From IMG/VR virus record IMGVR_UViG_3300028888_000052: 64,000 bases of DNA, one strand, 5' to 3'. This document shows positions 20,348 to 60,395 of the stretch, piece after piece (positions within the stretch are counted from its first letter, which is position 1; each line of letters starts with the position of its first letter). The notes below the pieces were generated by a model. It was not told the DNA's origin, made no database searches, and saw only the letters and a list, made by a program, of their open reading frames with translations. The translations under genes and the position numbers were made by a program. Source of the DNA: a virus (lineage: Duplodnaviria > Caudoviricetes).

Positions 20348-20580
20348 TATTTATTTGGAAATAATTTTGATTGAACTTCTTTAACATTTGTTTTAAATTT
20401 ACTACTGTGGTCATATAAGACTCCAAGTATAGACATCTTTGCTCCATTTGCAAGTTTTGGTAATAAATCATCAAGTTTTTCTCCTTCTATAAGTTTAAGA
20501 ATTAAAACTTGTGGGGTCATTTTATCAAAATCTGGTGCTGCATAGTGGTCTTCATTTATTCTTTGTATTAAATCTTTCAT
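20347..20580 (-). CDS. Small putative internal head protein
   Basis: MKDLIQRINED leader. Confidence 0.55.
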   Translation of the reverse strand: MKDLIQRINEDHYAAPDFDKMTPQVLILKLIEGEKLDDLLPKLANGAKMSILGVLYDHSSKFKTNVKEVQSKLFPNK

Positions 20581-22226
20581 TATTTCTCCTTTTCTTTATT
20601 TTTCTTTTCTTCAGCTTCTTTAGCTTTCTTTTCTGCTTCTTCTTTGAAACTATAAGCTAAATCATCTTCAAGAATATGTTTCTTTGCAGGATTAATTTGA
20701 TAAGCCATACGAGACATTACATCACGATTTATAAGAACTTTTTGTTTCTTATTACGATTATCAACTAATGCAAATTCTACATCAAGAAGTTTACGTGAAC
20801 CAACTTGTATACATGGTATAATAACTGTAGTACGTTCTTCTGTTTGTTGACCAACAATAGCATGTGATTCACCTTCTTTCTTGAATTGATATTTCTTACC
20901 ATCAATAGTGGCAATAACAAGATTACCTTTATAATCTACTGAATCACATCCAATAGTTGAAGCTTTAGCACCATTACCTGTATCAAATTTAGCTTCAAAT
21001 TCAAATTCATCATCATTATCCATAATGAATTTTACATTTTCAAGATATCCTATAGCCTTAGGAGCAAGTACTAATTCATTAACATCATTGATTTCATCAA
21101 GAAGGATTTCCATAAAGTTATCATCAATAACTTCAGAAATACCATCTGTACCTGGAGAAGCATTATATTCAAGAACAACATTATCTCCAACTTCAGGATT
21201 AGAACCTTTTACAAGTGGCATAATGTCAACAGCACACCAAGGCATACCAGAAATTTTAGCAACTTTTAATGCTATTTCTTCTTGTTCTGGAGTAAGAGTT
21301 ACTTTTTCAGCAGTAGCACCAAGTGAAACATTAGAACGGAAGTCACCACCAATCTTCTTACGTTTCATTTGTGCAAGTATTTTTTGGTGAGTTCTCATTG
21401 TTAATACATGAACACGGATATCACCACCATCAGCTTCTTCTTTCTTTTGTACTAATAATTCACGTTCTTCATCAACTGCAAATACCATTTGAAGCATTGA
21501 AAGAATTGTTTTACCAGTTTGCATTGTAACACCAGTTCCACCATGACCATCAAGTATCTTTACAACATATTCTTTCTTTTTATCTTCATCTTCATTCTTA
21601 CCAACATCTGGATAAATTTCTTTAAGTTTCTTCTTAAGAGATTCTTCACCTTTGTTTATATCATTTTTTGATATAAGAGTAAATTTAGGTTGAGGAATTT
21701 CATAACGTTCCATTAAAACAGATGATTGATATTTATTAGAAGCTTTCTTAGCTGCTTGAATAGGGTTAAGTACAAAGAATCCCCAATCTTGAAGTTCTTT
21801 AATAAGTTCCATACATTCTTCAGAATCTTGTGCACCAAGACGAGTTATAACAATTGTATCAACATTAGATTGTTCATCAATTTTATATTTATTCTCATTA
21901 TCGTGCCATTCGATTACATCATCTGTAGCTTTATAATCAACTTCTTCTGCAACAAATGGGAATATATCAACACCTTTACCTTTAACAGCTTGTTCAAGAT
22001 TCTTTAATGTTTTATTAGTTTTTGAATCTCTATCATTTGTAAAGATAATGATATTTTTGAAGAAATATCCTTTCTTTTTATCTTCTTTTTCAGCTTCAGT
22101 TATTTGTGTTTCTTGTACTGGAGTTTCTTCTTTTTTTGATTCTTTGATACGACCAGCATATCTAAATTTCAAATCATCAACTGACTTGATATTTCTATAA
22201 TCAATAATATCGTTTAAATTTTTCAT
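20580..22226 (-). CDS. RimK-family ATP-grasp ligase fused to a retropepsin-like (RimB/PF05618-type) protease
   Basis: ATP-grasp motifs NKY, VVKILDGHGGTGV, DIRVHV, DFRSNVSLGA, AVDIM, VLEYNASPG; protease motifs IGYLENV, AKFDTGNG, VLINRDVM. Confidence 0.85.
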   Translation of the reverse strand: MKNLNDIIDYRNIKSVDDLKFRYAGRIKESKKEETPVQETQITEAEKEDKKKGYFFKNIIIFTNDRDSKTNKTLKNLEQAVKGKGVDIFPFVAEEVDYKATDDVIEWHDNENKYKIDEQSNVDTIVITRLGAQDSEECMELIKELQDWGFFVLNPIQAAKKASNKYQSSVLMERYEIPQPKFTLISKNDINKGEESLKKKLKEIYPDVGKNEDEDKKKEYVVKILDGHGGTGVTMQTGKTILSMLQMVFAVDEERELLVQKKEEADGGDIRVHVLTMRTHQKILAQMKRKKIGGDFRSNVSLGATAEKVTLTPEQEEIALKVAKISGMPWCAVDIMPLVKGSNPEVGDNVVLEYNASPGTDGISEVIDDNFMEILLDEINDVNELVLAPKAIGYLENVKFIMDNDDEFEFEAKFDTGNGAKASTIGCDSVDYKGNLVIATIDGKKYQFKKEGESHAIVGQQTEERTTVIIPCIQVGSRKLLDVEFALVDNRNKKQKVLINRDVMSRMAYQINPAKKHILEDDLAYSFKEEAEKKAKEAEEKKNKEKEK

Positions 22227-22281: not shown

Positions 22282-23313
22282 ATGTCAGAGTATAAAAAAT
22301 TAGAGAACTTAATTAAAGACAAAAAAATTCTATATATTCCAATTTATTCATGTTTTGATTACAAGACTAATGAATTGAATTTTAAGGCTGATGGAAATAT
22401 TAATAGATTTTTAACTACATTTTTCTTTTGTAGAAATTATAAATCTTTAACAATTTTATATCCACCAACAGGAAATAATATTAATTGGTTTGAAACAACT
22501 TGTAAAAATATATTACATGATGTTAATTTAGAACCATGTAGTTTTATTGTAAAATCTGCTAAAATTGAGAGAAGTCTTGATTTTGCAAATAATGTTTTCA
22601 ATAGTTTAAAGTGTCTTTATGAATATGATTTTATTATTGTAGAATCTCAACATTTGTTTTTGAAATTTTATAATAATGGATATAAGAATTTAATTTATTG
22701 GTGTCCAGTTTGTGCAACTAATGAAAAGACAAGAGATTTTCTTGAACCATTCAAAGAATTAGATAGATATATATTTAGTATTGCTGAACATACAATAGTA
22801 GCATCAGATGACCAAGTAACATATTATAAAACTATTTGTAAAGATAAAGAACCTATTCAAATTAAAAAACTTATTAATAGAATTTTACCATGTTTTAATT
22901 ATACAAAACAAAAAGATGTGATAGAATTATTCAATAAGTTTAATAGTTATCATAAAATATTCTTACCATTTAGATTAACAGATAGAGGTTATCAAATGCA
23001 AGAAATATTTGATTATCTTTATAATGAATATAGAGGAACAAAGTCATTTAAAGTTTTTTATACTAATCCTAATAATTGTGACATATATCAATTTGCAAAA
23101 AATGACTCTTATAAGAAATTATTCATAGATAATAATTTTATTCAAGTTAGTAAAGATAGAGATACTTATTATACAATTATTGATGATTGTAATGTAATTA
23201 TTCCTTATTTTGAAGATATTGAATTTATATGTCATGCGGCAATTGATGAATTCAAATTTGGTCATTGTACTGTATGTAAAAATTTGGAAGAATTTAAATC
23301 TATATTGAATTAA
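22282..23313 (+). CDS. Putative DNA glycosyltransferase (GT-B; arabinosyltransferase-like)
   Basis: ILYIPIYS...DGN, YWCPV, IFLPFRLTDRGY, YTNPN; from memory resembles putative arabinosyltransferases of RB69-like phages; first gene of the modification operon. Confidence 0.55.
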   Translation: MSEYKKLENLIKDKKILYIPIYSCFDYKTNELNFKADGNINRFLTTFFFCRNYKSLTILYPPTGNNINWFETTCKNILHDVNLEPCSFIVKSAKIERSLDFANNVFNSLKCLYEYDFIIVESQHLFLKFYNNGYKNLIYWCPVCATNEKTRDFLEPFKELDRYIFSIAEHTIVASDDQVTYYKTICKDKEPIQIKKLINRILPCFNYTKQKDVIELFNKFNSYHKIFLPFRLTDRGYQMQEIFDYLYNEYRGTKSFKVFYTNPNNCDIYQFAKNDSYKKLFIDNNFIQVSKDRDTYYTIIDDCNVIIPYFEDIEFICHAAIDEFKFGHCTVCKNLEEFKSILN

Positions 23314-23330
23314 ATATATATCTTATTGTT

Positions 23331-23987
23331 ATGCCACAAAAAATACAAGATAAATTATCAAGTACTTTAAGAATTTTTAGTGATTTAATTGAATCACCTA
23401 GTTGTATAGATTTAATAAATGAATTAAAAGAAGTAAAGAATCCAACATTTATATTTAGTGGAGTAGGAAAGAATTGGTATATTTGTGAGAAAGAAGTGAA
23501 GACATTTATATCGATGGGATTAAATGCTAAATCATTAGATTGCACGCATGCATTACATGGTGATTTAGGTATGCTTATGAATGACAAAGAGTTAAAATAT
23601 ATATTCTTTGTATCTAAGTCAGGCAAAACAAATGAGATGCATAAGCTTATAGATGTCATAGTTGATTTAAAAGAGAAGAATATCATCAAGAATATCAATT
23701 TAATTATGCTTTGTTTGAATCCAACTATAGAAGATTCGATAGATGCGACAAAGTTTGAGTTTATATTAAAACCATCTATTAAATTTAAAGATATTGCAAA
23801 CATTGAATTAGATGATAGAAATCTTATACCAACATTGTCTATTAATATAACACAAGGTGTCTTAGATTATATTGGAGTAAATATCTATGAAAATAATCCA
23901 GAATTAATTGAAAATTATAAATATAACCATCTTGGTGGCTCAAATGGAAGAGCATTAGGAATGGAAAAATATTTAGAAGAAATATGA
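23331..23987 (+). CDS. SIS-domain sugar-phosphate isomerase (KdsD/arabinose-5-phosphate isomerase-like, no CBS domains)
   Basis: FSGVGKN, HALHGDLG, VSKSGKTNE, IPTLS, HLGGSNG. Confidence 0.85.
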   Translation: MPQKIQDKLSSTLRIFSDLIESPSCIDLINELKEVKNPTFIFSGVGKNWYICEKEVKTFISMGLNAKSLDCTHALHGDLGMLMNDKELKYIFFVSKSGKTNEMHKLIDVIVDLKEKNIIKNINLIMLCLNPTIEDSIDATKFEFILKPSIKFKDIANIELDDRNLIPTLSINITQGVLDYIGVNIYENNPELIENYKYNHLGGSNGRALGMEKYLEEI

Positions 23988-25546
23988 ATATAATTATAGT
24001 AGCAGGTGGATTAGGTACAAGATTTCAAGATCTTTCAGTTTTTCCAAAAATTTTATTACCAACAAAAGCATATAACTCATTATTAGAACAAAATTATGAG
24101 ATATTTGTAAATGGATGGGATCATAAATTGTTTTTAATTATAAATGAAAAATATTATGATATGACAGTTAATTATTGTCATGTTAATAATATTGATGTAA
24201 AAATTATTAAGTCTACAAATACAAATGGATCATATAATACAATATTAAGTGTATATGATCAGATACCTCATGAAAATGTTTTATTTATTTGGTCAGATTT
24301 GGAATTGTCTTCTATAGATGATTCATTCAATCTAATAGATGATGATACAATATTCACTTATAATGGAGAATATAGATATGGTATAGATGATGGTAAAATT
24401 ACATATCATGATTTTTATGATGGTAATATTCCAGGAATTTATTATTTGACAAATCTTAATAGATATTTTTCTGATTATAGATTGGATGAAAATGATAATT
24501 ATGATTTAATAGAAGCAATTAAAGAATTTAATTATGATATTAATGCATGTGAGTATCAAGGTAAATTAGAAGAGTATAGAGATAAACAAACATATATAAA
24601 TCATATTAAAGAAACTAATTCAAATGTAGAACTGTCATTCAAAACAAGATTTTTTAATATGATTGAACCTGATTATTCAATACCGGGTGAATATAAAATC
24701 AAAAAGTGGGCGGTTAATTCTGATTATTATCATCTTATTAGAAAAGAATATGATTGGTATAATAAGCTTAAACAACAAGATTTAGGTAATTATACTTATG
24801 ATATGATTGTACCAAAAGTATATGATGGTATGATAAAAAATAATACAGGATTTGTAATGGCTTTATTGGATAATTATATGCCATTACATGAATTTATTAA
24901 AACAAGACCAGTAGAAGATGTTCAAAGAGTATATAAGACAATTCATCTCCATTTAGATGCATTATCAAGATGCAAGAAAGAAGTTGATGATTTAGATTTT
25001 TATCAAGATTTGAAAAAAGAAATTATCACAAAAGTAATAGATAGATGCGAGAAAATTAAATATATGCTTATTAAATATGAACCAGAACAATTACAAGTTT
25101 TATTAGAGGAAACATATAATTATTTATGTGATAATACAGAAATTATAAATCATAAGACTTTATATTGTGTTTGTCATGGTGATTTAAATGGATCTAATGT
25201 TTTAGTTCATAAAATTACAAATGATGTTAAGTTTATAGATCCACGTGGATATTTTGGTTATACAACATTTTATGGTTGGCAAGATTATGAATATGCAAAA
25301 TTATTATATTGTTTAGATGGGTATGATGATTTTAATAATCTTCCACAAGTATATGGATTAGATATTCCACAAAGATTGAAGTGGTTTGGTAAGATTAACT
25401 ATCTTAATAAAAAGAAATATAAAGTACTTGTAGGAGTAATTTGGATAGCATTAGCAGGTTATATTTCACAAGATATTATGAAAGCAAATATAGCTTATGA
25501 GTATGGTATACAAATGTTGCAAGAGTCATTAAAGGAAAATGAGTAA
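23984..25546 (+). CDS. Sugar-phosphate nucleotidyltransferase fused to an APH/choline-kinase-like phosphotransferase
   Basis: N-terminal IIVAGGLGTRF...PKILL and WSD; C-terminal CHGDLNGSNVL...KFIDPRGYFG...YEYAKL. Confidence 0.8.
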   Translation: MNIIIVAGGLGTRFQDLSVFPKILLPTKAYNSLLEQNYEIFVNGWDHKLFLIINEKYYDMTVNYCHVNNIDVKIIKSTNTNGSYNTILSVYDQIPHENVLFIWSDLELSSIDDSFNLIDDDTIFTYNGEYRYGIDDGKITYHDFYDGNIPGIYYLTNLNRYFSDYRLDENDNYDLIEAIKEFNYDINACEYQGKLEEYRDKQTYINHIKETNSNVELSFKTRFFNMIEPDYSIPGEYKIKKWAVNSDYYHLIRKEYDWYNKLKQQDLGNYTYDMIVPKVYDGMIKNNTGFVMALLDNYMPLHEFIKTRPVEDVQRVYKTIHLHLDALSRCKKEVDDLDFYQDLKKEIITKVIDRCEKIKYMLIKYEPEQLQVLLEETYNYLCDNTEIINHKTLYCVCHGDLNGSNVLVHKITNDVKFIDPRGYFGYTTFYGWQDYEYAKLLYCLDGYDDFNNLPQVYGLDIPQRLKWFGKINYLNKKKYKVLVGVIWIALAGYISQDIMKANIAYEYGIQMLQESLKENE

Positions 25547-26096
25547 GAAATTAATAGTAATAGAAGGATTTGATAGATGTGGCAAAGATACTTTAATGTC
25601 AGATCTATCAAATCTTAATAATGATTTTTATATTTATGGTAATGATTTGACAGGATTGCCAAAATATGATAAAGAACAAGAAGAATTTTTAGTTTGGTTA
25701 AATAAATTCATTAATAAACAAGTTAATGATCTGAATGAATTATTTAAAACACATGATACAATTGTCATGTGTAGATTGTTGATTTCTGATGAAGTATATA
25801 GCACTTTATTTAATAGAGAGCATACAGCTATTAAATATATGGATCAACTTAAAGATGTAGAGATAATTCATTATTGTTTATTATTTAAGAATTTTGATGA
25901 ATATTGTGATAGATTGAAAAAAATTGGAGATGAAAATATCCAATATGATTATGAAAATTTTAATAAAATTAATCAATTATATTTAGATAAACTTCAAGAA
26001 GTAAATTACAAATATTATATAAATTATATTTATTCATATACATCTAAAAGAAGTATTTTAGAAAATTTTTATACTTATTATGATAAAGTTAAATAA
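25539..26096 (+). CDS. Deoxynucleoside monophosphate kinase (thymidylate kinase-like)
   Basis: P-loop LIVIEGFDRCGKDTL; R..ISDEVYS..FNR. Confidence 0.75.
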   Translation: MSKKLIVIEGFDRCGKDTLMSDLSNLNNDFYIYGNDLTGLPKYDKEQEEFLVWLNKFINKQVNDLNELFKTHDTIVMCRLLISDEVYSTLFNREHTAIKYMDQLKDVEIIHYCLLFKNFDEYCDRLKKIGDENIQYDYENFNKINQLYLDKLQEVNYKYYINYIYSYTSKRSILENFYTYYDKVK

Positions 26097-27324
26097 TTTT
26101 ACAAAAGGAGAAAAGAAAGGAAAGACCATAGGAATTTTTAGCCCAAGTAGATTATCACCATATAAAGAGACAAAATTACCTGGTTGGCAAGAGTCATATA
26201 ATCTTATAAAATTCTTGAAAGATTATGTTGGTTATGACAAAGTATATATATTGAATTGGTATAAGAATGACAAGAGATATGAAAAGCTTAAAGAGCAATA
26301 TCCATATCTTTATAACTTAAAGAATATAGAACAAGCTTCTAAAGATATTGATGAGATATTACAAAAGCCAGATGGGTTAGTATGTTTTGGTGGAGCTTTA
26401 CACCCAACATATTATTATATTTGTTCATTGATTTGGTATAAGAGAAATGATCCTAATTTCAAATTATATTATTATGATCATGACCCACAATTTAATAAAT
26501 TCAATTTTGTAAAAGGAATATCTTCAAGAAAATCTTTAATAAATGTTGGAATGGGAGATTTGGAAAAAGAATATTCTGATATTTATTTAGAGCACCAAAA
26601 AGAATTAATAGAATATATTGATAACAATACTATTGGTCTTTATGGCGGTTTAGATTATGACTTATATTGCAAAAAACTTAAGGGTGATATGCCCAATATG
26701 AAACAATGGTTATATTTTGACATCAATGAATATTCTTTTGCTAATAATTTTGATTTCTCAAAGATTTTAACTGATATTAAGTTTGAAGATAAATATAAGT
26801 TTGGATATTTTGGTATTAAACGTAGAAATAAAATTAGACAAGATATCATCAATAATTTATTAGGTCAATTAGATAAATCCGGAATTATTATTGGTAATGT
26901 TAGTGAAATTATTGATTGTTCTTCTAAGTTTAATTGTATAGAATCTATGCAAATACCAGATTTGTATTATTTCTTGAATAACAATATTAAGTCATCATTA
27001 TTTATAACTGACCCAGCAAATTGGAATAATTATAAAAGTTTTAGATTTTTTGAGAATTTACTTTTAGATTATGTAGGTTTTATTTATAAGAAACAAGATG
27101 TTAATAAAATCTATATTAATAATGAAGAACTTAAATCATACATATATGTTGATGAAGATGATTTCTTAGGAAAAGTAAATCAAATATCTAGTGATGAGAA
27201 ATTATATAAGCATTTAGTTTATCTTGAAAGAAAAGAGTTTTATACCCAAATGTCATCATATATGTTAGACGAGAATAAAGTAATATTTGAAGATTGGTTA
27301 AATAAGCATAAAGATTATGAATAA
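26080..27324 (+). CDS. Putative DNA glycosyltransferase, T4 beta-glucosyltransferase-like GT-B
   Basis: ESYNLIKFLK, YYYDHDPQF, FGYFGIKRRNKIR, KSFRFFENL parallel T4 BGT FTDP, YGGSFRSGQR and TLRVWE motifs. Confidence 0.6.
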   Translation: MIKLNNFTKGEKKGKTIGIFSPSRLSPYKETKLPGWQESYNLIKFLKDYVGYDKVYILNWYKNDKRYEKLKEQYPYLYNLKNIEQASKDIDEILQKPDGLVCFGGALHPTYYYICSLIWYKRNDPNFKLYYYDHDPQFNKFNFVKGISSRKSLINVGMGDLEKEYSDIYLEHQKELIEYIDNNTIGLYGGLDYDLYCKKLKGDMPNMKQWLYFDINEYSFANNFDFSKILTDIKFEDKYKFGYFGIKRRNKIRQDIINNLLGQLDKSGIIIGNVSEIIDCSSKFNCIESMQIPDLYYFLNNNIKSSLFITDPANWNNYKSFRFFENLLLDYVGFIYKKQDVNKIYINNEELKSYIYVDEDDFLGKVNQISSDEKLYKHLVYLERKEFYTQMSSYMLDENKVIFEDWLNKHKDYE

Positions 27325-28348
27325 ACAATTATCTGATAAAATATTTATATGTGGTCCATGTGCAGTTGAATCTAAGGAACAATTATTAGATATTGCAAAA
27401 GGATTAAAAGAAAATAATATAAATTGTCTTTTTAGAGCAGGTGTTTGGAAGCCAAGAACTAATCCTGGTAATTTTGAAGGTTTAGGAGAAATTGCAATCA
27501 AATGGATGTGTGAAGTTCGTAGAATATATGGATTTCAAATAGGTTGGGAAGTAGCTACCGAAGAACATATTTTGTTATCTCTTAAATATAAACCAGATTT
27601 TTTATGGATAGGAGCTAGAACTACGGTAAATCCATTTATGGTTGAAAAAATTGCCCAATTATTAGGAGATACAGATATTTCTATTTTTGTAAAAAATCCA
27701 TCAAATTCTGATTTTTCTCTTTGGTGTGGTGCTATTGAGAGATTATTAAATCATAATGTAAATGTAGTTGGAGTTATTCATCGTGGATTTTCTTCACAAA
27801 ACTTAGCAGATTATCGTAATGCACCTATGTGGTCAATTCCTATTAAACTTAAGAATAAATTCCCTAATTTATTATTGTTAGGAGATCCAAGTCACATGGG
27901 AGGTCATGATTTTCTTATTAAGGAAATTTCTCAAAAAATGATGAATTTGAATTATGATGGATTAATGATTGAAGTCCATAATAATCCTTTAGAAGCTTGG
28001 ACTGATGCTAAACAACAAATTACTCCCGAAGATTTAAAAGATATATTAGATACATTAGAAATACCTATCGAAAACACTAATAATGGTTTAGTTGAATATA
28101 GAATGCAAATTGATGAAATTGATGACCAAATTCTTTCATTAGTTAAACAAAGATTCGATATTACTAAAAAAATAGGTGAATGGAAACAAGAACATAATGT
28201 AGCTATATTCCAACAAGGTAGATATGAAGAAATATTAAAGAAAAATGAGATTAGAGCTAAACGATATAATTTAGATTTAGATTTAATAAATAATATCTTT
28301 AATGTTATACACGAAAAATCAGTAGAACAACAATTGAATAATGTATAA
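27317..28348 (+). CDS. DAHP synthase (type I-beta) with C-terminal chorismate mutase, Bacteroidota-type
   Basis: GPCAVES, RAGVWKPRT, WIGART, KNP, HRGF, DPSH, GLMIEVH, WTDAKQQ; C-terminal AroQ motif YRMQIDEIDDQILSLVKQR..I...IG..K. Confidence 0.92.
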   Translation: MNKQLSDKIFICGPCAVESKEQLLDIAKGLKENNINCLFRAGVWKPRTNPGNFEGLGEIAIKWMCEVRRIYGFQIGWEVATEEHILLSLKYKPDFLWIGARTTVNPFMVEKIAQLLGDTDISIFVKNPSNSDFSLWCGAIERLLNHNVNVVGVIHRGFSSQNLADYRNAPMWSIPIKLKNKFPNLLLLGDPSHMGGHDFLIKEISQKMMNLNYDGLMIEVHNNPLEAWTDAKQQITPEDLKDILDTLEIPIENTNNGLVEYRMQIDEIDDQILSLVKQRFDITKKIGEWKQEHNVAIFQQGRYEEILKKNEIRAKRYNLDLDLINNIFNVIHEKSVEQQLNNV

Positions 28349-28928
28349 AAATCGTCAAAAATTAGAAGTTTATAATAATTGGTTTGAGTATTTTAAAGAT
28401 TCTATAAGTAAAGATCATTTAGGATATAAAATTATATTTGTAAGTGATTGTGATGGTATTTTAACAGATGGTCGTAGCTATTTCAATGAAGTTAAGACTC
28501 ATAAGAGTTATGGATCCTATGATAAAGAAGCCGTCAAATTCATATGTGATTATATGGATGATGTAATATATTTTGTATCAGATGATAAAATAGGTTCTAA
28601 GATAACTGAGAATAGAATTAATCATCTAAAAAAATCTACTAATAATAAGCAAGTTTATTTCATGGTTCAATCACCTCAAGAAAGATATGAGTTGGTTAAA
28701 TCTTTGAAAACTCCAAAAAATATAGTTGTATTTATAGGAGATTCATTATCGGATATTCCAACATTATCTGTAGCTGATATTGCTATGACAACTAATAATG
28801 CACCTGGTGAAGTAAAGAAATATTGTAATTACATATCTTTATTAAATGGCGGAGTTGGTGGATTTGCTGATTGTATTTTTCACTTTTATGAAAATTTAAA
28901 AGATGTTAAATCTATTTTAAATATATAA
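28341..28928 (+). CDS. HAD phosphatase, KdsC-like
   Basis: VSDCDGILTDG, FIGDSLSDI, GGVGGFAD. Confidence 0.85.
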   Translation: MYKNRQKLEVYNNWFEYFKDSISKDHLGYKIIFVSDCDGILTDGRSYFNEVKTHKSYGSYDKEAVKFICDYMDDVIYFVSDDKIGSKITENRINHLKKSTNNKQVYFMVQSPQERYELVKSLKTPKNIVVFIGDSLSDIPTLSVADIAMTTNNAPGEVKKYCNYISLLNGGVGGFADCIFHFYENLKDVKSILNI

Positions 28929-28948
28929 ATATATGTTAAAATTTGTGA

Positions 28949-30040
28949 ATGGTTAACCAATTTAAAGTAGGATGTAATTTTGATTTAAAGTTAATAGACA
29001 AAGCAGTAGAATTAAACGAGAAATATAAAGGTAAAGCAGAAATTAAAGAATGGTTTGGTAGTGATGCACAAAATCATTTTGTAACTGCAAGACCAAAATG
29101 GAGATTACCAGAGATTGATGAAAAATTCTTTAAGGAATTTATTCAAAGATCAAGAGATAATGGTATTGTATTTAATTATACAATGAATAGCATTCAACCT
29201 TATGGATCAAAAGCAAATATGGTTGAACATAAACAAGAAATTCAAGATTTTGTTAAGAAACTTGAAGATATGGGTGTTTATCGTATCACATTTGCTAATC
29301 CAATGATGGGAATGTTTATTAGAGAAGTATCAAATATTGAATTAGAAATAAGTTGTATTTCACATATAGATACAGTTACACAATTCAAATATTTTCATGA
29401 GACATTAGGAGTTAATAAATTCTGTAATTCAATTTTGAAAAATAGAAATAGAGATTTCTTGAAAAATGTAGCAGAATATTGTAATGCTAATGGTATTATT
29501 CTTGAATTACTTGCTAATGAATTTTGTGGAGTAGCTGGCCCAAAATATGCAACACATTGCCCATATCGTGATTCTTGTTATTTATGTCATGCAACAAATG
29601 TGACAAAAGAAGATAGTATGTCATATGATAATTATCCAATGCATTTTTGTATGTTTGCAAGAGATGATCATAGTGATGAGGCTTGGTTAAGAATGAGATG
29701 GATTAGACCAGAGGATTTACATTATTACAATGACATTGGAATTAATTATTTCAAGATTTCTGGACGTACAGGTAGCACAGAATACGTTGCCAAGATGATG
29801 GAAGCATATATGTCAGAAAATTGGGAAGGTAATTTATTAAATCTTTGGAAACCACTACAAACAATATATAATGGCAAGAATGAATTTGAAGAAGAATTAC
29901 CAATACAGATTGATAATAAGAAATTAGATGGATTCTTAGACCATTGGTTTGATAAGAATTTTGAATGTGAAAATGAGATGTGTGGTACAACTTGTAATTA
30001 TTGTGAAAGATTTATGAATAAAATCAAAGGTAATGTTTAA
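28949..30040 (+). CDS. Peptidase U32-family Fe-S protein (probable prephenate-dependent hydroxylase)
   Basis: LELLANEFC...HCPYRDSCY...FC cysteine set, WIRPEDL..Y...GINYFKISGR, C-terminal CENEMCGTTCNYC. Confidence 0.85.
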   Translation: MVNQFKVGCNFDLKLIDKAVELNEKYKGKAEIKEWFGSDAQNHFVTARPKWRLPEIDEKFFKEFIQRSRDNGIVFNYTMNSIQPYGSKANMVEHKQEIQDFVKKLEDMGVYRITFANPMMGMFIREVSNIELEISCISHIDTVTQFKYFHETLGVNKFCNSILKNRNRDFLKNVAEYCNANGIILELLANEFCGVAGPKYATHCPYRDSCYLCHATNVTKEDSMSYDNYPMHFCMFARDDHSDEAWLRMRWIRPEDLHYYNDIGINYFKISGRTGSTEYVAKMMEAYMSENWEGNLLNLWKPLQTIYNGKNEFEEELPIQIDNKKLDGFLDHWFDKNFECENEMCGTTCNYCERFMNKIKGNV

Positions 30041-30051
30041 ACATTACCTTT
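30026..30051. terminator. Bidirectional terminator overlapping both convergent stop codons
   Basis: Palindrome AAAGGTAATGTTT/AAACATTACCTTT followed by a T-run. Confidence 0.7.
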
Positions 30052-43001: not shown

Positions 43002-43219
43002 TGGCAAAACAAGGTTCAATAGAGCAATTTGGTATTATAACAGAAAATCTTTCTAATTCAATGTTTAGGGTTGAATTAGATAATGGTATTGAAATATTGT
43101 GTCATATATCAGGGAAGATTCGTATTAATAATATTAGATTGATGACAGGTGATAAAGTAAAAGTTGAGATGAGTCCTTATGATTTGAGTAAAGGAAGAAT
43201 TGTTACAAGATTGAAATGA
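43001..43219 (+). CDS. infA: Translation initiation factor IF-1
   Basis: [65 protein letters not shown], 72 aa. Confidence 0.95.
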
Positions 43220-43956
43220 TTGAGTTAAATAAGATATATAATCAAGATTGTATTTATGGAATGGAACAGATTGATGACCATTCCATAGATTGTATATTAA
43301 CTGACCCACCATATGCTACAACCAATTGCACATGGGAGACTGAAGTAGATTTAGATGCACTTTGGAGTAAATGGAAACGTATTCTTAAACCAAATGGTGT
43401 TGTTTTAATTTGTGGTTCAGAACCATTTTCATCAAAAGTCCGCCTATCTAATCTTGAGTGGTATAAATATGATTTGTATTGGGTTAAAGAAAAACCAGTC
43501 AATTTTTTCCAACTTAAGAGACGTTTTGGGAAGACTACTGAGAATATAATGGTTTTTTATAAAGGACAACCAACATATAACCCTCAAATGGTTAAGTATG
43601 ATGGTAAGAAAGTTACAAACTCAACTAAAAAATCACATACATCAGTCACAACTGGTATTTCAAAATCTACTATAACACCATATAATGATACTGGATATCG
43701 CTATCCTACAGACATATTACGTATAAATAGAGAAAAGCTTGGTTCAACAATACACGAAACCCAAAAACCATTAGGGTTAGCAAAGCTTCTTATAAATACT
43801 TTCACTAATGAAGGTGATATAGTATTAGATTGTTTTTCGGGAAGTGGAACTTTTGCATTGGCAAGTTCTATATTAAATAGAAATTATATAGCATTTGAAA
43901 GGGATAAAGAAATATTTGATAAATCAATTAAAAGAATAGAAGAATATGAAAGTTAA
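43216..43956 (+). CDS. DNA N6-adenine/N4-cytosine methyltransferase (beta class), orphan
   Basis: ILTDPPY ... HETQKP ... [10 protein letters not shown]. Confidence 0.92.
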
Positions 43957-56879: not shown

Positions 56880-59444
56880 ATGATTATAATTAAACGAGAT
56901 GGTACTCCCCAAGAATATTCTTTCTTGAAAATCGCGGATGCCGTACATAAAGCGTTTGCTTCGGTAGACCAAGATGTTCCAGATAAGTTTCTTGAGCAAG
57001 TAAAAGATTCAGTAGAAAAGCTAATTATCAAAAACAATGGTAATGGTACGGGTATAGAAGAAATTCAAGATTGCATTCAAAATGAGCTTATTAAGCGTAA
57101 TAAGTTTGAAGTTGTAGAATCATTTATTGCATATCGTAAAGAACGTGAACGTATTCGTTTGGAAAATACCGATTTGATTAAACAAATTGAAGAAAAGCTT
57201 TATGCAACAAATGTACAAAACCAAAATGCTAATTTAGATGAAGACTCTTTTGGTGGTCGTTTAGGAGAAACTTCAGGTGTTGTCGCTAAAGATAGAGCTC
57301 TTAAGAAGATGTCTAAAATTGGTCGTAAGAATCATGAAGGAAATATGGTTTATATCCATGACTTAGATCATTGGTTAGTAGGTGATCACAACTGCTTGTC
57401 ATATCCATTTGATAGTAAACTTAAAGATGGTGTTGTTACAAGACAAACTGATGTTAGAACAGCCGGTTCAATTAATACTGCTATGCAACTTGTTGCTGTT
57501 AATTTCCAATTACAATCATTACAACAATTTGGTGGTGTTGCTGCTACACATATTGACTGGTCTATGGTACCTTACGTCCGTAAATCATATAGAAAACACT
57601 ATATCTTTGATTGGATTAAGAAACAACCAGAATTTTCAGATCTTGATATTTTAGGTTTAACATATGAAGAGCTTAAACACTGGGTTGAAAATATGATTAC
57701 TAAGTTTTATTTAACTACAAAACTTAAGGATGAAGATTTTACATTTGCTAATAAGAATCTTGATAATCAATTACGTCAAGAATCATTATTAGATACAAAA
57801 CAAGAAACATACCAAGCGGTTGAAGGTATGTATCATAATTTAAATACTCTTCAATCACGTTCAGGTAATCAACTTCCATTTACTTCTATAAATTATGGTA
57901 CTTGTACAGAATTAGAAGGACGTATGGTAACTAAAGCCCTTCTTGAAGTTTCTATAGAAGGACTTGGTAAACATGGTGTAACATCAATATTCCCTTGTGG
58001 AATTTTTCAAATTAAAAAAGGAGTTAATTTCAAACCAGGTGATCCGAACTATGATTTGAAGCGTCTTGCATTGAAATCAACAACTATGCGTATTTATCCT
58101 AACTATGCTAATTGTGATTGGTCAAATCAAGTAAATTGGTTTAATGCTGATAGAAAACAAAAACAAGAATATATTGAGTCATTATCTGATCATGATTATG
58201 TACAATTGACAAGTGCTATTGAAGATGAACCAAAAATATGTTTTGATAAAGTTGGTTTATATGTTGATGATAGTAAACGAATTCGTGTAGATATGACAGA
58301 ACGTCCTATTGAATATTTCTCTACAATGGGTTGTCGTACTGTAAATGGTCTTGATATTAATGCATTTGATAATTTCAAGAGAAACGTACAATGCATTATG
58401 GATGGTAGATATGATGATATAGATGATGTGTTCTCAAGTGTTATTAAAGATGGTCGTGGTAATATTTGTCCTACAACAATTATTATGCCAACACTTGCAG
58501 CTATGACTCGTAAGAAACTTGAAAAGAAATGGGAAGATTCTGGTGCTGAATATGTTAAAGGACCTGAATATGAAGAAATGATGTTCTCTGAATTTATGAA
58601 ACTTCTCGACAAGAAGATTCATGAGGCTAAAGATATGTTACTTGAACGTTTCAATCATATTTGTTCACAATCACCAAAATCTGCTCGTTATATGTATGAA
58701 AATCATACTATGGCTGGATATCATGAAGAAGAAGGAATTATTTCAGCTCTTAAGCATGGTACAATTGTTATTGGTCAATTAGGTATGGCCGAAACTCTTC
58801 AACTTTTATTTGGTTATGATCATACTACAAATAAAGGAATGGAATATGCTAAGAAGATTGAACAATTATTCTTAGATAGAACCTCAGAATTCAAAAAAGA
58901 ATATAAACTCAATTTTGGTGTTTATTATACTCCTGCTGAATCATTATGCCATACAGCTATGAAGAAATTCCGTAAAGCATTCCCTCAATATTGTCTTGAA
59001 AATGTAACATATTACATTAAGAAAGATGGTGAAAAGAAAGAGAAAGAATATTTTACAAACTCTATTCATGTACCAGTTTATTATGAATGTGATCCATTTA
59101 AGAAGATTGATATTGAAAGTCAATTGACAACTTATTCAAATGCCGGTTGTATTACTTATGTAGAGTTACCAAGTATATCATTCAATAATATAGATGGTGT
59201 TGAAAAAATAGTTGATTATGCTATTGAACATGATATCCCTTATTTTGCATTGAATTTCCCTCTTAATAGATGTGCAAGATGTGGTGAACCTATTTATGAT
59301 TCTGATTTAGAAGAATGTCCAAAATGTGGTTGCAAGAAAATAATTAGATTAGGTCGTGTAACTGGTTATCTTTCTACAACAGTTGAACATTTTAATAAAG
59401 GTAAACAAGATGAATTTTATGATAGAGTAAAACACATGAAATAA
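56880..59444 (+). CDS. nrdD: Anaerobic (class III) ribonucleoside-triphosphate reductase with ATP cone
   Basis: IIKRDG ATP cone, YIHDLD, HNC, TMGCRT, TPAESL, YFTNS, CxxC...CPxCG, glycyl-radical motif RVTGYL. Confidence 0.95.
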   Translation: MIIIKRDGTPQEYSFLKIADAVHKAFASVDQDVPDKFLEQVKDSVEKLIIKNNGNGTGIEEIQDCIQNELIKRNKFEVVESFIAYRKERERIRLENTDLIKQIEEKLYATNVQNQNANLDEDSFGGRLGETSGVVAKDRALKKMSKIGRKNHEGNMVYIHDLDHWLVGDHNCLSYPFDSKLKDGVVTRQTDVRTAGSINTAMQLVAVNFQLQSLQQFGGVAATHIDWSMVPYVRKSYRKHYIFDWIKKQPEFSDLDILGLTYEELKHWVENMITKFYLTTKLKDEDFTFANKNLDNQLRQESLLDTKQETYQAVEGMYHNLNTLQSRSGNQLPFTSINYGTCTELEGRMVTKALLEVSIEGLGKHGVTSIFPCGIFQIKKGVNFKPGDPNYDLKRLALKSTTMRIYPNYANCDWSNQVNWFNADRKQKQEYIESLSDHDYVQLTSAIEDEPKICFDKVGLYVDDSKRIRVDMTERPIEYFSTMGCRTVNGLDINAFDNFKRNVQCIMDGRYDDIDDVFSSVIKDGRGNICPTTIIMPTLAAMTRKKLEKKWEDSGAEYVKGPEYEEMMFSEFMKLLDKKIHEAKDMLLERFNHICSQSPKSARYMYENHTMAGYHEEEGIISALKHGTIVIGQLGMAETLQLLFGYDHTTNKGMEYAKKIEQLFLDRTSEFKKEYKLNFGVYYTPAESLCHTAMKKFRKAFPQYCLENVTYYIKKDGEKKEKEYFTNSIHVPVYYECDPFKKIDIESQLTTYSNAGCITYVELPSISFNNIDGVEKIVDYAIEHDIPYFALNFPLNRCARCGEPIYDSDLEECPKCGCKKIIRLGRVTGYLSTTVEHFNKGKQDEFYDRVKHMK

Positions 59445-59894: not shown

Positions 59895-60395
59895 ATGCTT
59901 AGAATAGTAGATATAACTGCACCAGATATAAATAATGGAAATGGATTAAGAGTAACTTTATGGGTTGCTGGATGTAATCATAGATGTAAAGGATGTCATA
60001 ATGCTTGGACATGGAAATATGAACAAGGTAGAGTTTTTTCTGAAGAGCAAAATAAGATATTTGAAGAACTATCAGAATGGTTAGATAGAGATTATATAGA
60101 AGGATTAACATTATCTGGTGGAGATCCGTTGGCTCAAGATAACGATGGTCTTTGTGAACTTTATTCAATCATTAAATGGTTTAAAGAAAAATACCCTACA
60201 AAAAATATTTGGCTTTATACTGGATATACTAAAGAAGAAATTGATAGTATGAATGATTATATCTTACATAAAATAGTTGATTCTATCAATGTTTTAGTAG
60301 ATGGTCCTTATATAGAAGAAAAAAGAGATATCGCCCATACTCCATTTAGAGGAAGTACTAATCAAAGGTTAATTTACATAAATAATCAAAAATAA
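59895..60395 (+). CDS. nrdG: Anaerobic RNR activating enzyme (radical SAM)
   Basis: NGNGLRVTLWVAGCNHRCKGCHN, LTLSGGDPL, WLYTGY, VLVDGPY, FRGSTNQR. Confidence 0.95.
   Translation: MLRIVDITAPDINNGNGLRVTLWVAGCNHRCKGCHNAWTWKYEQGRVFSEEQNKIFEELSEWLDRDYIEGLTLSGGDPLAQDNDGLCELYSIIKWFKEKYPTKNIWLYTGYTKEEIDSMNDYILHKIVDSINVLVDGPYIEEKRDIAHTPFRGSTNQRLIYINNQK

Follow-up and report, generated by a model that had tools for sequence, protein, structure and literature searches.

In the phages RB69, DLP3, HY126, Bas46/47 and Serratia LC53/92A1, arabinosylated 5-hydroxycytosine replaces cytosine in the DNA (Lee et al. NAR 2026, PMC13326640). The known pathway to 5-hydroxycytosine (5hoC) operates at the level of dCMP and employs a ThyA-like 5-hydroxy-dCMP (5hodCMP) synthase that uses flavin and O2, as judged by 18O2 labelling, and the RNA pyrimidine hydroxylation pathways are stated to be unrelated to this enzyme (PMC13326640). 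Among the latter, ho5C and ho5U formation without O2 depends on the U32 proteins RlhA (5-hydroxycytidine, ho5C2501, in 23S rRNA) and TrhP (5-hydroxyuridine, ho5U34, in tRNA), and UbiU/UbiV act in the anaerobic synthesis of ubiquinone (PMC10990095; PMC10470549). It is established that the UbiU/V-dependent hydroxylations take their oxygen from prephenate (PMC10990095). Here we analyse an operon (positions 22282-30040) in the 64,000-nucleotide stretch of the Caudoviricetes record IMGVR_UViG_3300028888_000052, called the window throughout, which encodes a U32-family protein together with a 3-deoxy-D-arabino-heptulosonate 7-phosphate (DAHP) synthase fused to a chorismate mutase (CM). U32 hydroxylases and 5hoC hypermodification are both known already; the gene content of this operon suggests an undescribed route in which 5hoC DNA would be made without oxygen and fuelled by prephenate. 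We consider it rather probable that the U32 protein is a prephenate-dependent cytosine C5 hydroxylase and that the DAHP synthase-CM fusion supplies its co-substrate.

The operon consists of eight plus-strand open reading frames (ORFs; Table 1) that overlap or abut (overlaps at 23984/23987, 25539/25546, 26080/26096, 27317/27324 and 28341/28348). They are not chance ORFs; their family matches are strong and conserved in many related contigs. The operon is a homologue of the arabinosyl-5-hydroxycytosine (ara-5hoC) cluster of RB69, HY126 and Bas46. A tblastn search with the Bas46 cluster matched the U32 (52%), SIS (28%), AfhE (26%) and glycosyltransferase (22%) genes in the window, and the operon contains an arabinose-5-phosphate isomerase, an AfhE-like kinase/nucleotidyltransferase, a sugar phosphatase, a Tmk-like kinase and a glycosyltransferase. 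Gene by gene, the isomerase is 28.5% identical to bas46_0148, the AfhE-like protein 26% to bas46_0146 (E 9e-38) and the glycosyltransferase, weakly, 22% to bas46_0141 (E 3e-5; all tblastn). In GenBank, 222 T4-like phages, including HY126, Bas46, Serratia 92A1, LC53 and Shewanella Thanatos, encode a homologue with 50-55% identity to the U32 protein, and the RB69 counterpart is gp50 (Lee et al., PMC13326640). The latter, with its match to the U32 structure 5D88, was given just as a "sugar or heterocycle reductase" with an unexplained role; the RB69 equivalent of the Tmk-like kinase is gp45, and the function of ORF3 is assigned here from the AfhE work (PMC13326640). The preliminary description of this DNA had correctly recognized a modification operon, but had missed its homology to the published cluster with the unexplained gp50.

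Both systems share the isomerase, the kinase/nucleotidyltransferase, the Tmk-like kinase, the glycosyltransferase and the U32 protein, arranged as a single cluster in a T4-like phage. Unlike the ara-5hoC cluster, the window operon lacks the ThyA-like flavin- and O2-dependent synthase and has an added DAHP synthase-CM. Its HAD phosphatase is of the KdsC type and belongs to a different family from that of the ara-5hoC cluster; the DCDGILTDG motif of ORF7 can be read in the DNA, and tblastn with the HAD protein bas46_0145 against the window gave no match to ORF7. ORF7 is therefore best described, on homology, as a functional analogue of AfhF and not its orthologue. The window phage also differs in its strictly anaerobic host habitat and is an uncultured phage known from metagenome genes alone.

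To see how general this gene content is, 41 phage records of IMG/VR were compared, together with 11 contexts from metagenomes or GenBank. The loci were gathered by exact-protein look-ups and with a U32 profile (42 IMG/VR loci, 41 records searchable), and all 41 IMG/VR records were searched whole for marker families. The U32 gene is the constant element of these modification clusters. The ThyA-like 5hodCMP synthase (signature RSQN) gave no tblastn match within the 64-kb window, and neither PF00303 nor the Bas46 synthase found a match in G001-G012, G035 and G039. Apart from the enterobacterial T4-likes and G041, 23 records were searched, and all of them lack the synthase; it is confined to those T4-likes and to a single record whose U32 protein is distant. 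ThyA-family genes were absent from every record with a U32 protein at least 58% identical to that of the window, including the complete G005, G009 and G012, and the ThyA-like synthase was absent also from the partial records of the window clade. The ThyA-family genes of L007 and G013 are of the dUMP type (RSGD...N, not RSQN).

The U32 protein itself (ORF8) matches Peptidase_U32 (PF01136) weakly and over a short stretch, at 37.2 bits with a cut-off of 22.4, and phrog_5757 at 1e-131. Ten of its Cys residues are invariant across 45 homologues, all close relatives, in line with the Cys-rich U32 protein that had been noticed before. The family is phage-associated and comprises 636 clusters at 90% identity and 1446 representatives at 50%. 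An AlphaFold2 model of the U32 protein (pLDDT 91.7) has the U32 protein Mk0906 (5D88) as its top PDB match; a search of the PDB by sequence with the U32 profile gave no match. In hhalign comparisons the broad family profile A5 aligned with E. coli TrhP (96.7%, E 4e-10, 256 columns) and with UbiU (87%), and it alone worked: the narrow profile A2 was not significant against UbiU and UbiV. The TrhP and UbiU models were touched by distant family members only, at 16-30 bits. By homology the ORF8 family is a separate phage-associated subfamily and not an orthologue of RlhA, TrhP or UbiU/V. The invariant C193, C204, C210 and C234 and the near-invariant C213 fall in the Fe-S ligand region (spacing CX10CX5CX2C...C234). 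C210 aligns with UbiU C176, mutation of which abolishes the UbiU cluster; the alignments with TrhP and with UbiU disagree in register by one Cys. ORF8 belongs to the same superfamily as RlhA, TrhP and UbiUV, with a U32 fold match and conserved Cys residues in the Fe-S region, and RlhA is credited with C5 hydroxylation of a pyrimidine without O2, which is the chemistry proposed for ORF8. Unlike these proteins, ORF8 has an altered Cys spacing, an extra CX4CX3CX2C motif and a proposed deoxynucleotide or DNA substrate, and its gene is viral and comes with a linked chorismate mutase gene, while the cellular U32 enzymes rely on housekeeping PheA/TyrA. The extra motif is invariant, lies at the C-terminus (residues 340-352) outside the canonical U32 motif, and its last three Cys residues have a radical-SAM-like CX3CX2C spacing with a Tyr before the last Cys; the motif may bind a second metal, as an Fe-S cluster or Zn. 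A distant family member (L055:6167-7288, 212 bits) belongs to a different phage replication module, where its neighbours are UDG, a GT9-methyltransferase fusion, a radical-SAM protein, NUDIX, DNA polymerase A and ligase, and this module may represent a different hydroxy-base modification system.

The second key component, ORF6, had been read as a DAHP synthase with a KPRT motif and a C-terminal chorismate mutase, encoded two genes upstream of U32, and this reading stands. Its N-terminal part matches DAHP_synth_1 (PF00793; 91.1 bits, cut-off 25.5, aa 9-244) and its C-terminal part CM_2 (PF01817; 73.9 bits, cut-off 27, aa 261-339). Alignment with the P. furiosus DAHP synthase 1ZCO places the four metal ligands in register (Cys14, the His of DPSH, the Glu of IEVH and the Asp of TD); KPRT (aa 45-48) and IGAR are kept, while HRG stands in place of the ERG motif and KN in place of KRG. 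The CM domain aligns without gaps with E. coli CM 1ECM and retains six of eight catalytic residues (R11, R28, K39, R51, S84 and Q88), all six of which are invariant across the CMs compared. The two deviations, D48Q and E52Y/W, are the rule in 91 sampled Bacteroidota bifunctional DAHP synthase/CM enzymes and are therefore a lineage trait and not decay. From these residues the aldolase-mutase fusion looks functional. The closest cellular homologues are the same Bacteroidota enzymes (DAHP synthase/CM type II, 45-50% identity), with which ORF6 shares domain order, metal ligands, KPRT and the CM active-site variant (Gln at E. coli CM position 48, Tyr/Trp at 52). Such enzymes of the C-terminal AroQ type from Porphyromonas and Prevotella are active and inhibited by prephenate. 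Unlike them, ORF6 is phage-encoded within a DNA-modification operon and belongs to a clade of its own, which forms a long branch among Bacteroidota sequences in a quick tree; because of the long branches the tree cannot separate one from several phage acquisitions. A protein search for such fusions in GenBank phages returned only short "phage" records that resemble host contigs, and L001 was set aside: it has no U32 gene and groups with bacterial sequences in the tree. An unannotated family, phrog_10027, matched the window CM domain and may be the same family as the small CMs described below.

DAHP synthase and 3-deoxy-D-manno-octulosonate 8-phosphate (KDO8P) synthase are members of one family, and the operon holds formal counterparts of KdsD, KdsA, KdsC and KdsB, with the HAD gene overlapping the aldolase gene. 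It could hence be imagined that aldolase, arabinose-5-phosphate isomerase, KdsC-like phosphatase and nucleotidyltransferase make a 3-deoxy-ulosonic (DAH- or KDO-like) sugar for DNA or virion, the CM being just allosteric. We regard this as very unlikely. The motif is KPRT and not KANRS, and the NCBIfam models for DAHP synthase score 130-140 bits with ORF6, compared with 42 bits for KDO8P synthase, although the former remain below their equivalog cut-offs of 267-335. The CM catalytic residues are invariant, and across lineages the unvarying partner of U32 is the CM and not the aldolase, which is missing altogether from the L014 type of cluster. In the L052 cluster, no HAD homologue was found within 10 kb, yet a whole shikimate pathway is present.

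Chorismate mutase is linked to U32. A CM_2 match is found in 23 of the 41 IMG/VR records, and in 22 of these it lies within about 1 kb of the U32 gene. In the window, L004, L005, L059 and L060 the fusion is encoded upstream of U32, in L009 and L017 directly downstream. A second form is a stand-alone CM of 151 aa (L014 type) directly downstream of U32 in phages of 244-294 kb; it shares 50% identity with the CM part of the L017 fusion, hence the DAHP synthase part is absent and the CM is kept. The third form is that of enterobacterial T4-likes, in which mini-CMs of 80-120 aa are encoded between U32 and the ThyA-like synthase. These ORFs are annotated as 'hypothetical' behind a U32 'peptidase' and match AroQ CM_2 at 40-46 bits, for example in Serratia phage 92A1 (L058:6391-6648, WJZ27917.1) and at L036:11152-11496. 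The 79-aa ORF after U32 in Mosigvirus (bas46_0143) was examined as a further candidate but is not a CM, and the notion of a CM in every ara-5hoC phage was abandoned. Within the window clade (73-99% identity of the fusion) the order fusion, HAD, U32 was found in every context examined (L004, L005, L006, L059 and L060), and none of these relatives carries the fusion without U32. The best conserved operon proteins between the window and L004/L005 are U32 (69-87% identity) and the fusion (79%); for ORF4 and ORF1 the values are 62-64% and 53-59%. L060 (3866-9654) has the order glycosyltransferase, AfhE-like, Tmk, fusion, HAD, U32 and misses the SIS gene; therefore the sugar branch varies while fusion and U32 stay together. 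In the 212-kb relative L005, an IS605-type element (TnpB/Cas12f-like and Y1 transposase; L005:5425-7187) lies between the glycosyltransferase and SIS genes. Thus the suggested check of synteny between fusion, U32 and modification genes gave a favourable and broader picture than expected, with the CM moiety as the conserved partner.

An ordinary aromatic amino-acid auxiliary metabolic gene, captured from a Bacteroidota host and standing beside U32 by chance, is the least probable of the explanations that we weighed, and we regard it as very unlikely. It would agree with the nearest homologues being host-type Bacteroidota enzymes of the same architecture, with stand-alone DAHP synthases far from the cluster in enterobacterial T4-likes and with the fusion of G010, which is distant from U32. 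It does not account for an adjacency of CM and U32 that recurs in three architectures and several gene orders, for a fusion conserved as strongly as U32, or for shikimate genes embedded in a modification cluster; among Pfam-annotated neighbours no prephenate dehydratase or dehydrogenase turned up. Comparative genomics hence supports the earlier view of the fusion as a supplier of prephenate and not an amino-acid gene. The separate DAHP synthases just mentioned score 225-270 bits, have about 330 aa and are encoded at a distance of over 100 kb from the cluster. They occur often in enterobacterial ara-5hoC T4-likes (G017, G018, G020, G023, G025, G026 at 136955-137821, G030 and G031; also G013), and those of the enterobacterial T4-likes may also feed the prephenate supply.

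The embedded shikimate genes are those of the L052 lineage. In L052, L008 and L053, three independent assemblies with a uniform GC content of 25%, shikimate genes lie between U32/Tmk and SIS/AfhE. The L052 cluster starts with a glycosyltransferase, the fusion, U32, HNH, a 276-aa ORF, Tmk and a 170-aa ORF, and goes on with 3-dehydroquinate (DHQ) synthase, shikimate kinase, DHQase-5-enolpyruvylshikimate-3-phosphate (EPSP) synthase, chorismate synthase, shikimate dehydrogenase, SIS and AfhE. By annotation, the whole route from phosphoenolpyruvate and erythrose-4-phosphate to prephenate is encoded within this DNA-modification cluster. The shikimate set is complete in a low-GC uncultured phage (L052:14314-19311) and includes the fusion of a type II DHQase with EPSP synthase; the HNH endonuclease gene and the 276-aa protein, which has weak DndB/GmrSD_N-like matches, occupy L052:11169-13194 between U32 and the Tmk-like gene. 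Chorismate synthase was absent from all 41 IMG/VR records, and the full pathway is confined to the L052 lineage. At the other extreme, six small phages encode an Aat-like glycosyltransferase, homologous to ORF1, directly upstream of U32, and AfhE, SIS, ThyA-family and CM genes were not found in the five near-complete records of this type (41-49 kb). Here the glycosyltransferase and U32 stand alone, therefore U32 is separated from sugar activation and tied to the glycosyl acceptor.

This minimal module also bears on the substrate. Sequence does not reveal substrate specificity, and the best profile match of the family is TrhP, a tRNA uridine hydroxylase. U32 and CM might hence act on a target other than DNA cytosine, be it host or phage tRNA U34 or rRNA in a TrhP/RlhA-like takeover of translation, or dUMP for conversion to 5-hydroxyuracil. 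We think that this is quite unlikely, since U32 is always found within DNA-modification clusters, follows a DNA-glycosyltransferase homologue directly in the small phages, and would have to be replaced by some other enzyme for the glycosyl acceptor in the clusters without ThyA, which without U32 have none. Moreover, cytosine alone is replaced in the chemically analysed relatives. The amino-acid, KDO/DAH and RNA-target explanations each fit part of the data, but not the combination of U32-CM linkage, embedded shikimate pathway and glycosyltransferase-U32 module. A closer variant is that U32 with prephenate hydroxylates cytosine in polymerised DNA after replication and not dCMP. The characterised nucleic-acid U32 enzymes RlhA and TrhP work on polymers, namely RNA, and the six small phages mostly have no Tmk-like kinase within 10 kb (L044 has a weak match). 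The known 5hoC pathway runs at the dCMP level, however, and the clusters of the window and of all large relatives retain a Tmk-like kinase, as would fit a modified mononucleotide intermediate. Action on polymerised DNA thus appears unlikely, and action on dCMP is favoured because the Tmk-like kinase is retained.

Taken together, we propose that the operon would make glycosylated 5hoC DNA without oxygen; hydroxylase activity, substrate, oxygen donor and final sugar are inferred here from gene content. The fusion protein would draw phosphoenolpyruvate and erythrose-4-phosphate into the shikimate pathway and turn chorismate into prephenate. The U32 protein, a putative TIM-barrel Fe-S enzyme homologous to TrhP, UbiU and RlhA, would hydroxylate cytosine at C5, most likely on dCMP, with prephenate as oxygen donor and release of phenylpyruvate and CO2. 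The demand would be one prephenate per cytosine in each progeny genome, to be met by the fusion. The Tmk-like kinase would phosphorylate 5-hydroxy-dCMP for incorporation into DNA, the isomerase, the AfhE-like enzyme and the HAD phosphatase would make an NDP-pentose, probably arabinose, and one or two glycosyltransferases would decorate the 5-hydroxyl on the DNA.

Several observations weigh against this proposal. ORF8 found no match in NCBIfam and is remote from RlhA, TrhP and UbiU/V. Most U32 subfamilies bind [4Fe-4S] with the spacing CX6CX15CX3/4C, from which the spacing in ORF8 differs. No CM can be recognised in the Mosigviruses (RB69, HY126 and Bas46) or in several further phages with U32, and the fusion gene of G010 lies 136 kb from U32. 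The absence of the synthase from the window phage rests on 64 kb and on relatives, and the sole IMG/VR record of the window clade is 30% complete. These phages are uncultured and known from their genes rather than from the chemistry of their DNA. In vitro hydroxylation has been shown for no U32 protein (PMC10990095), hence the activity of the phage proteins is deduced twice over. Finally, under air the enterobacterial phages need no more than the ThyA-like enzyme to make 5hoC (PMC13326640), and U32 would therefore have to be redundant or conditional there.

Such a conditional role has known parallels. TrhO and TrhP for ho5U, and UbiI/H/F and UbiU/V for ubiquinone, are paired aerobic and anaerobic enzymes for one modification, and the enterobacterial T4-likes likewise carry the ThyA-like synthase together with U32, with or without CM. 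U32 may thus be the anaerobic counterpart of the ThyA-like synthase in these phages, although this redundancy is deduced from gene content alone, unlike that of the Trh and Ubi pairs. The ribonucleotide reductases follow the same line. All 12 near-complete enterobacterial T4-likes, the phages with the ThyA-like synthase, encode an O2-dependent small subunit. The remaining U32 phages all lack this subunit, and NrdD occurs in eight of them; phages with U32 only have an anaerobic ribonucleotide reductase or none. Phages without the O2-dependent reductase carry U32 alone. The window encodes NrdD and an NrdG-like activase, as had been noticed before, and several studies of sheep, goat and bovine gut metagenomes contain DNA of the window.

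The features of the window are collected in Table 1. ORF1 gave no family in a Pfam search. The isomerase matches phrog_5670 at 4e-25 and TIGR00393 (KpsF/GutQ) at 3e-12, and ORF3 matches phrog_4098 at 1.5e-67 and the NTP_transferase and APH families of Pfam weakly. ORF5, without a Pfam match, is a candidate from a feature search (0.96 to clusters that carry PF09198, T4-Gluco-transf); it is missing in L004 and 24% identical to one ORF of L014. The hairpin at the end of the U32 gene is terminator-like and would end both the operon and a convergent minus-strand unit. A promoter scan of the AT-rich window was uninformative (86 sites, 87 expected), and megablast of the operon against GenBank phages found no match. 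Divergent from the operon lies a RimK/ATP-grasp gene, a neighbour that recurs in L005, L059 and L060 and in two copies in L009, one of them with an NlpC/P60 match. Elsewhere in the window an N6/N4 DNA methyltransferase gene suggests a second, independent layer of DNA modification.

Table 1. Positions of the operon genes and other features discussed, in window coordinates.
Feature	Position	Strand	Length (aa)	Evidence
RimK/ATP-grasp protein	20580-22226	-	548	
ORF1, glycosyltransferase	22282-23313	+	343	related to first arabinosyltransferase of RB69/Bas46 cluster (bas46_0141)
ORF2, SIS-domain sugar-phosphate isomerase, arabinose-5-phosphate isomerase-like	23331-23987	+	218	phrog_5670, TIGR00393
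ORF3, N-terminal nucleotidyltransferase and C-terminal kinase, AfhE-like (RB69 gp52:53)	23984-25546	+	520	phrog_4098
ORF4, thymidylate-kinase-like dNMP kinase (Tmk-like)	25539-26096	+	185	TIGR00041, phrog_761
ORF5, candidate second DNA glycosyltransferase, T4 beta-glucosyltransferase-like	26080-27324	+	414	feature search, lead only
ORF6, type I-beta DAHP synthase (aa 9-250) with C-terminal AroQ chorismate mutase (aa 255-343)	27317-28348	+	343	PF00793, PF01817
ORF7, KdsC/YrbI-type HAD sugar-phosphate phosphatase	28341-28928	+	195	NF058599, NF007019, TIGR01670
ORF8, divergent U32-family Fe-S protein	28949-30040	+	363	PF01136, phrog_5757
Hairpin, 11-bp stem, T-runs on both strands	30026-30051			terminator-like
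N6/N4 DNA methyltransferase	43216-43956	+		PF01555, 116 bits
NrdD, anaerobic ribonucleotide reductase	56880-59444	+		PF13597 410 bits, ATP-cone, Gly_radical
NrdG-like radical-SAM activase	59895-60395	+		Fer4_12 138 bits, Radical_SAM 38 bits

In the searchable literature no paper ties a phage U32 protein to cytosine hydroxylation, in agreement with the earlier remark that this coupling is undescribed in phages; He et al. 2026 and Mahler et al. 2025 may address U32. On a wider scale, the phage U32 proteins could make up a large family, so far overlooked, of 5-hydroxylases for deoxycytidylate (or DNA cytosine) that need prephenate and no O2. They would be the sole route to glycosylated 5hoC genomes in phages of strict anaerobes, with a dedicated supply by CM, the fusion or the entire shikimate pathway, and in phages of facultative anaerobes such as RB69 and 92A1 an anaerobic backup of the ThyA-like synthase; we see the chances of this generalization as evenly balanced. 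If true, it would explain 5hoC-hypermodified DNA in phages of anaerobes, given that the sole known synthase needs O2, and it would give a function to RB69 gp50 and to the 'hypothetical' mini-CM genes of well-studied T4-likes. ORF8 and its relatives would be the first U32 hydroxylases on DNA building blocks, and the operon the first virus-encoded pathway for an organic oxygen donor. The U32 field would gain a potentially soluble mononucleotide substrate and with it a realistic first in vitro assay for prephenate-dependent hydroxylation. Phage shikimate and chorismate genes would then be a co-substrate supply for DNA modification and not amino-acid auxiliary genes, and U32 with a glycosyltransferase, with or without CM, would be a marker for modified, restriction-resistant genomes in gut and rumen viromes.

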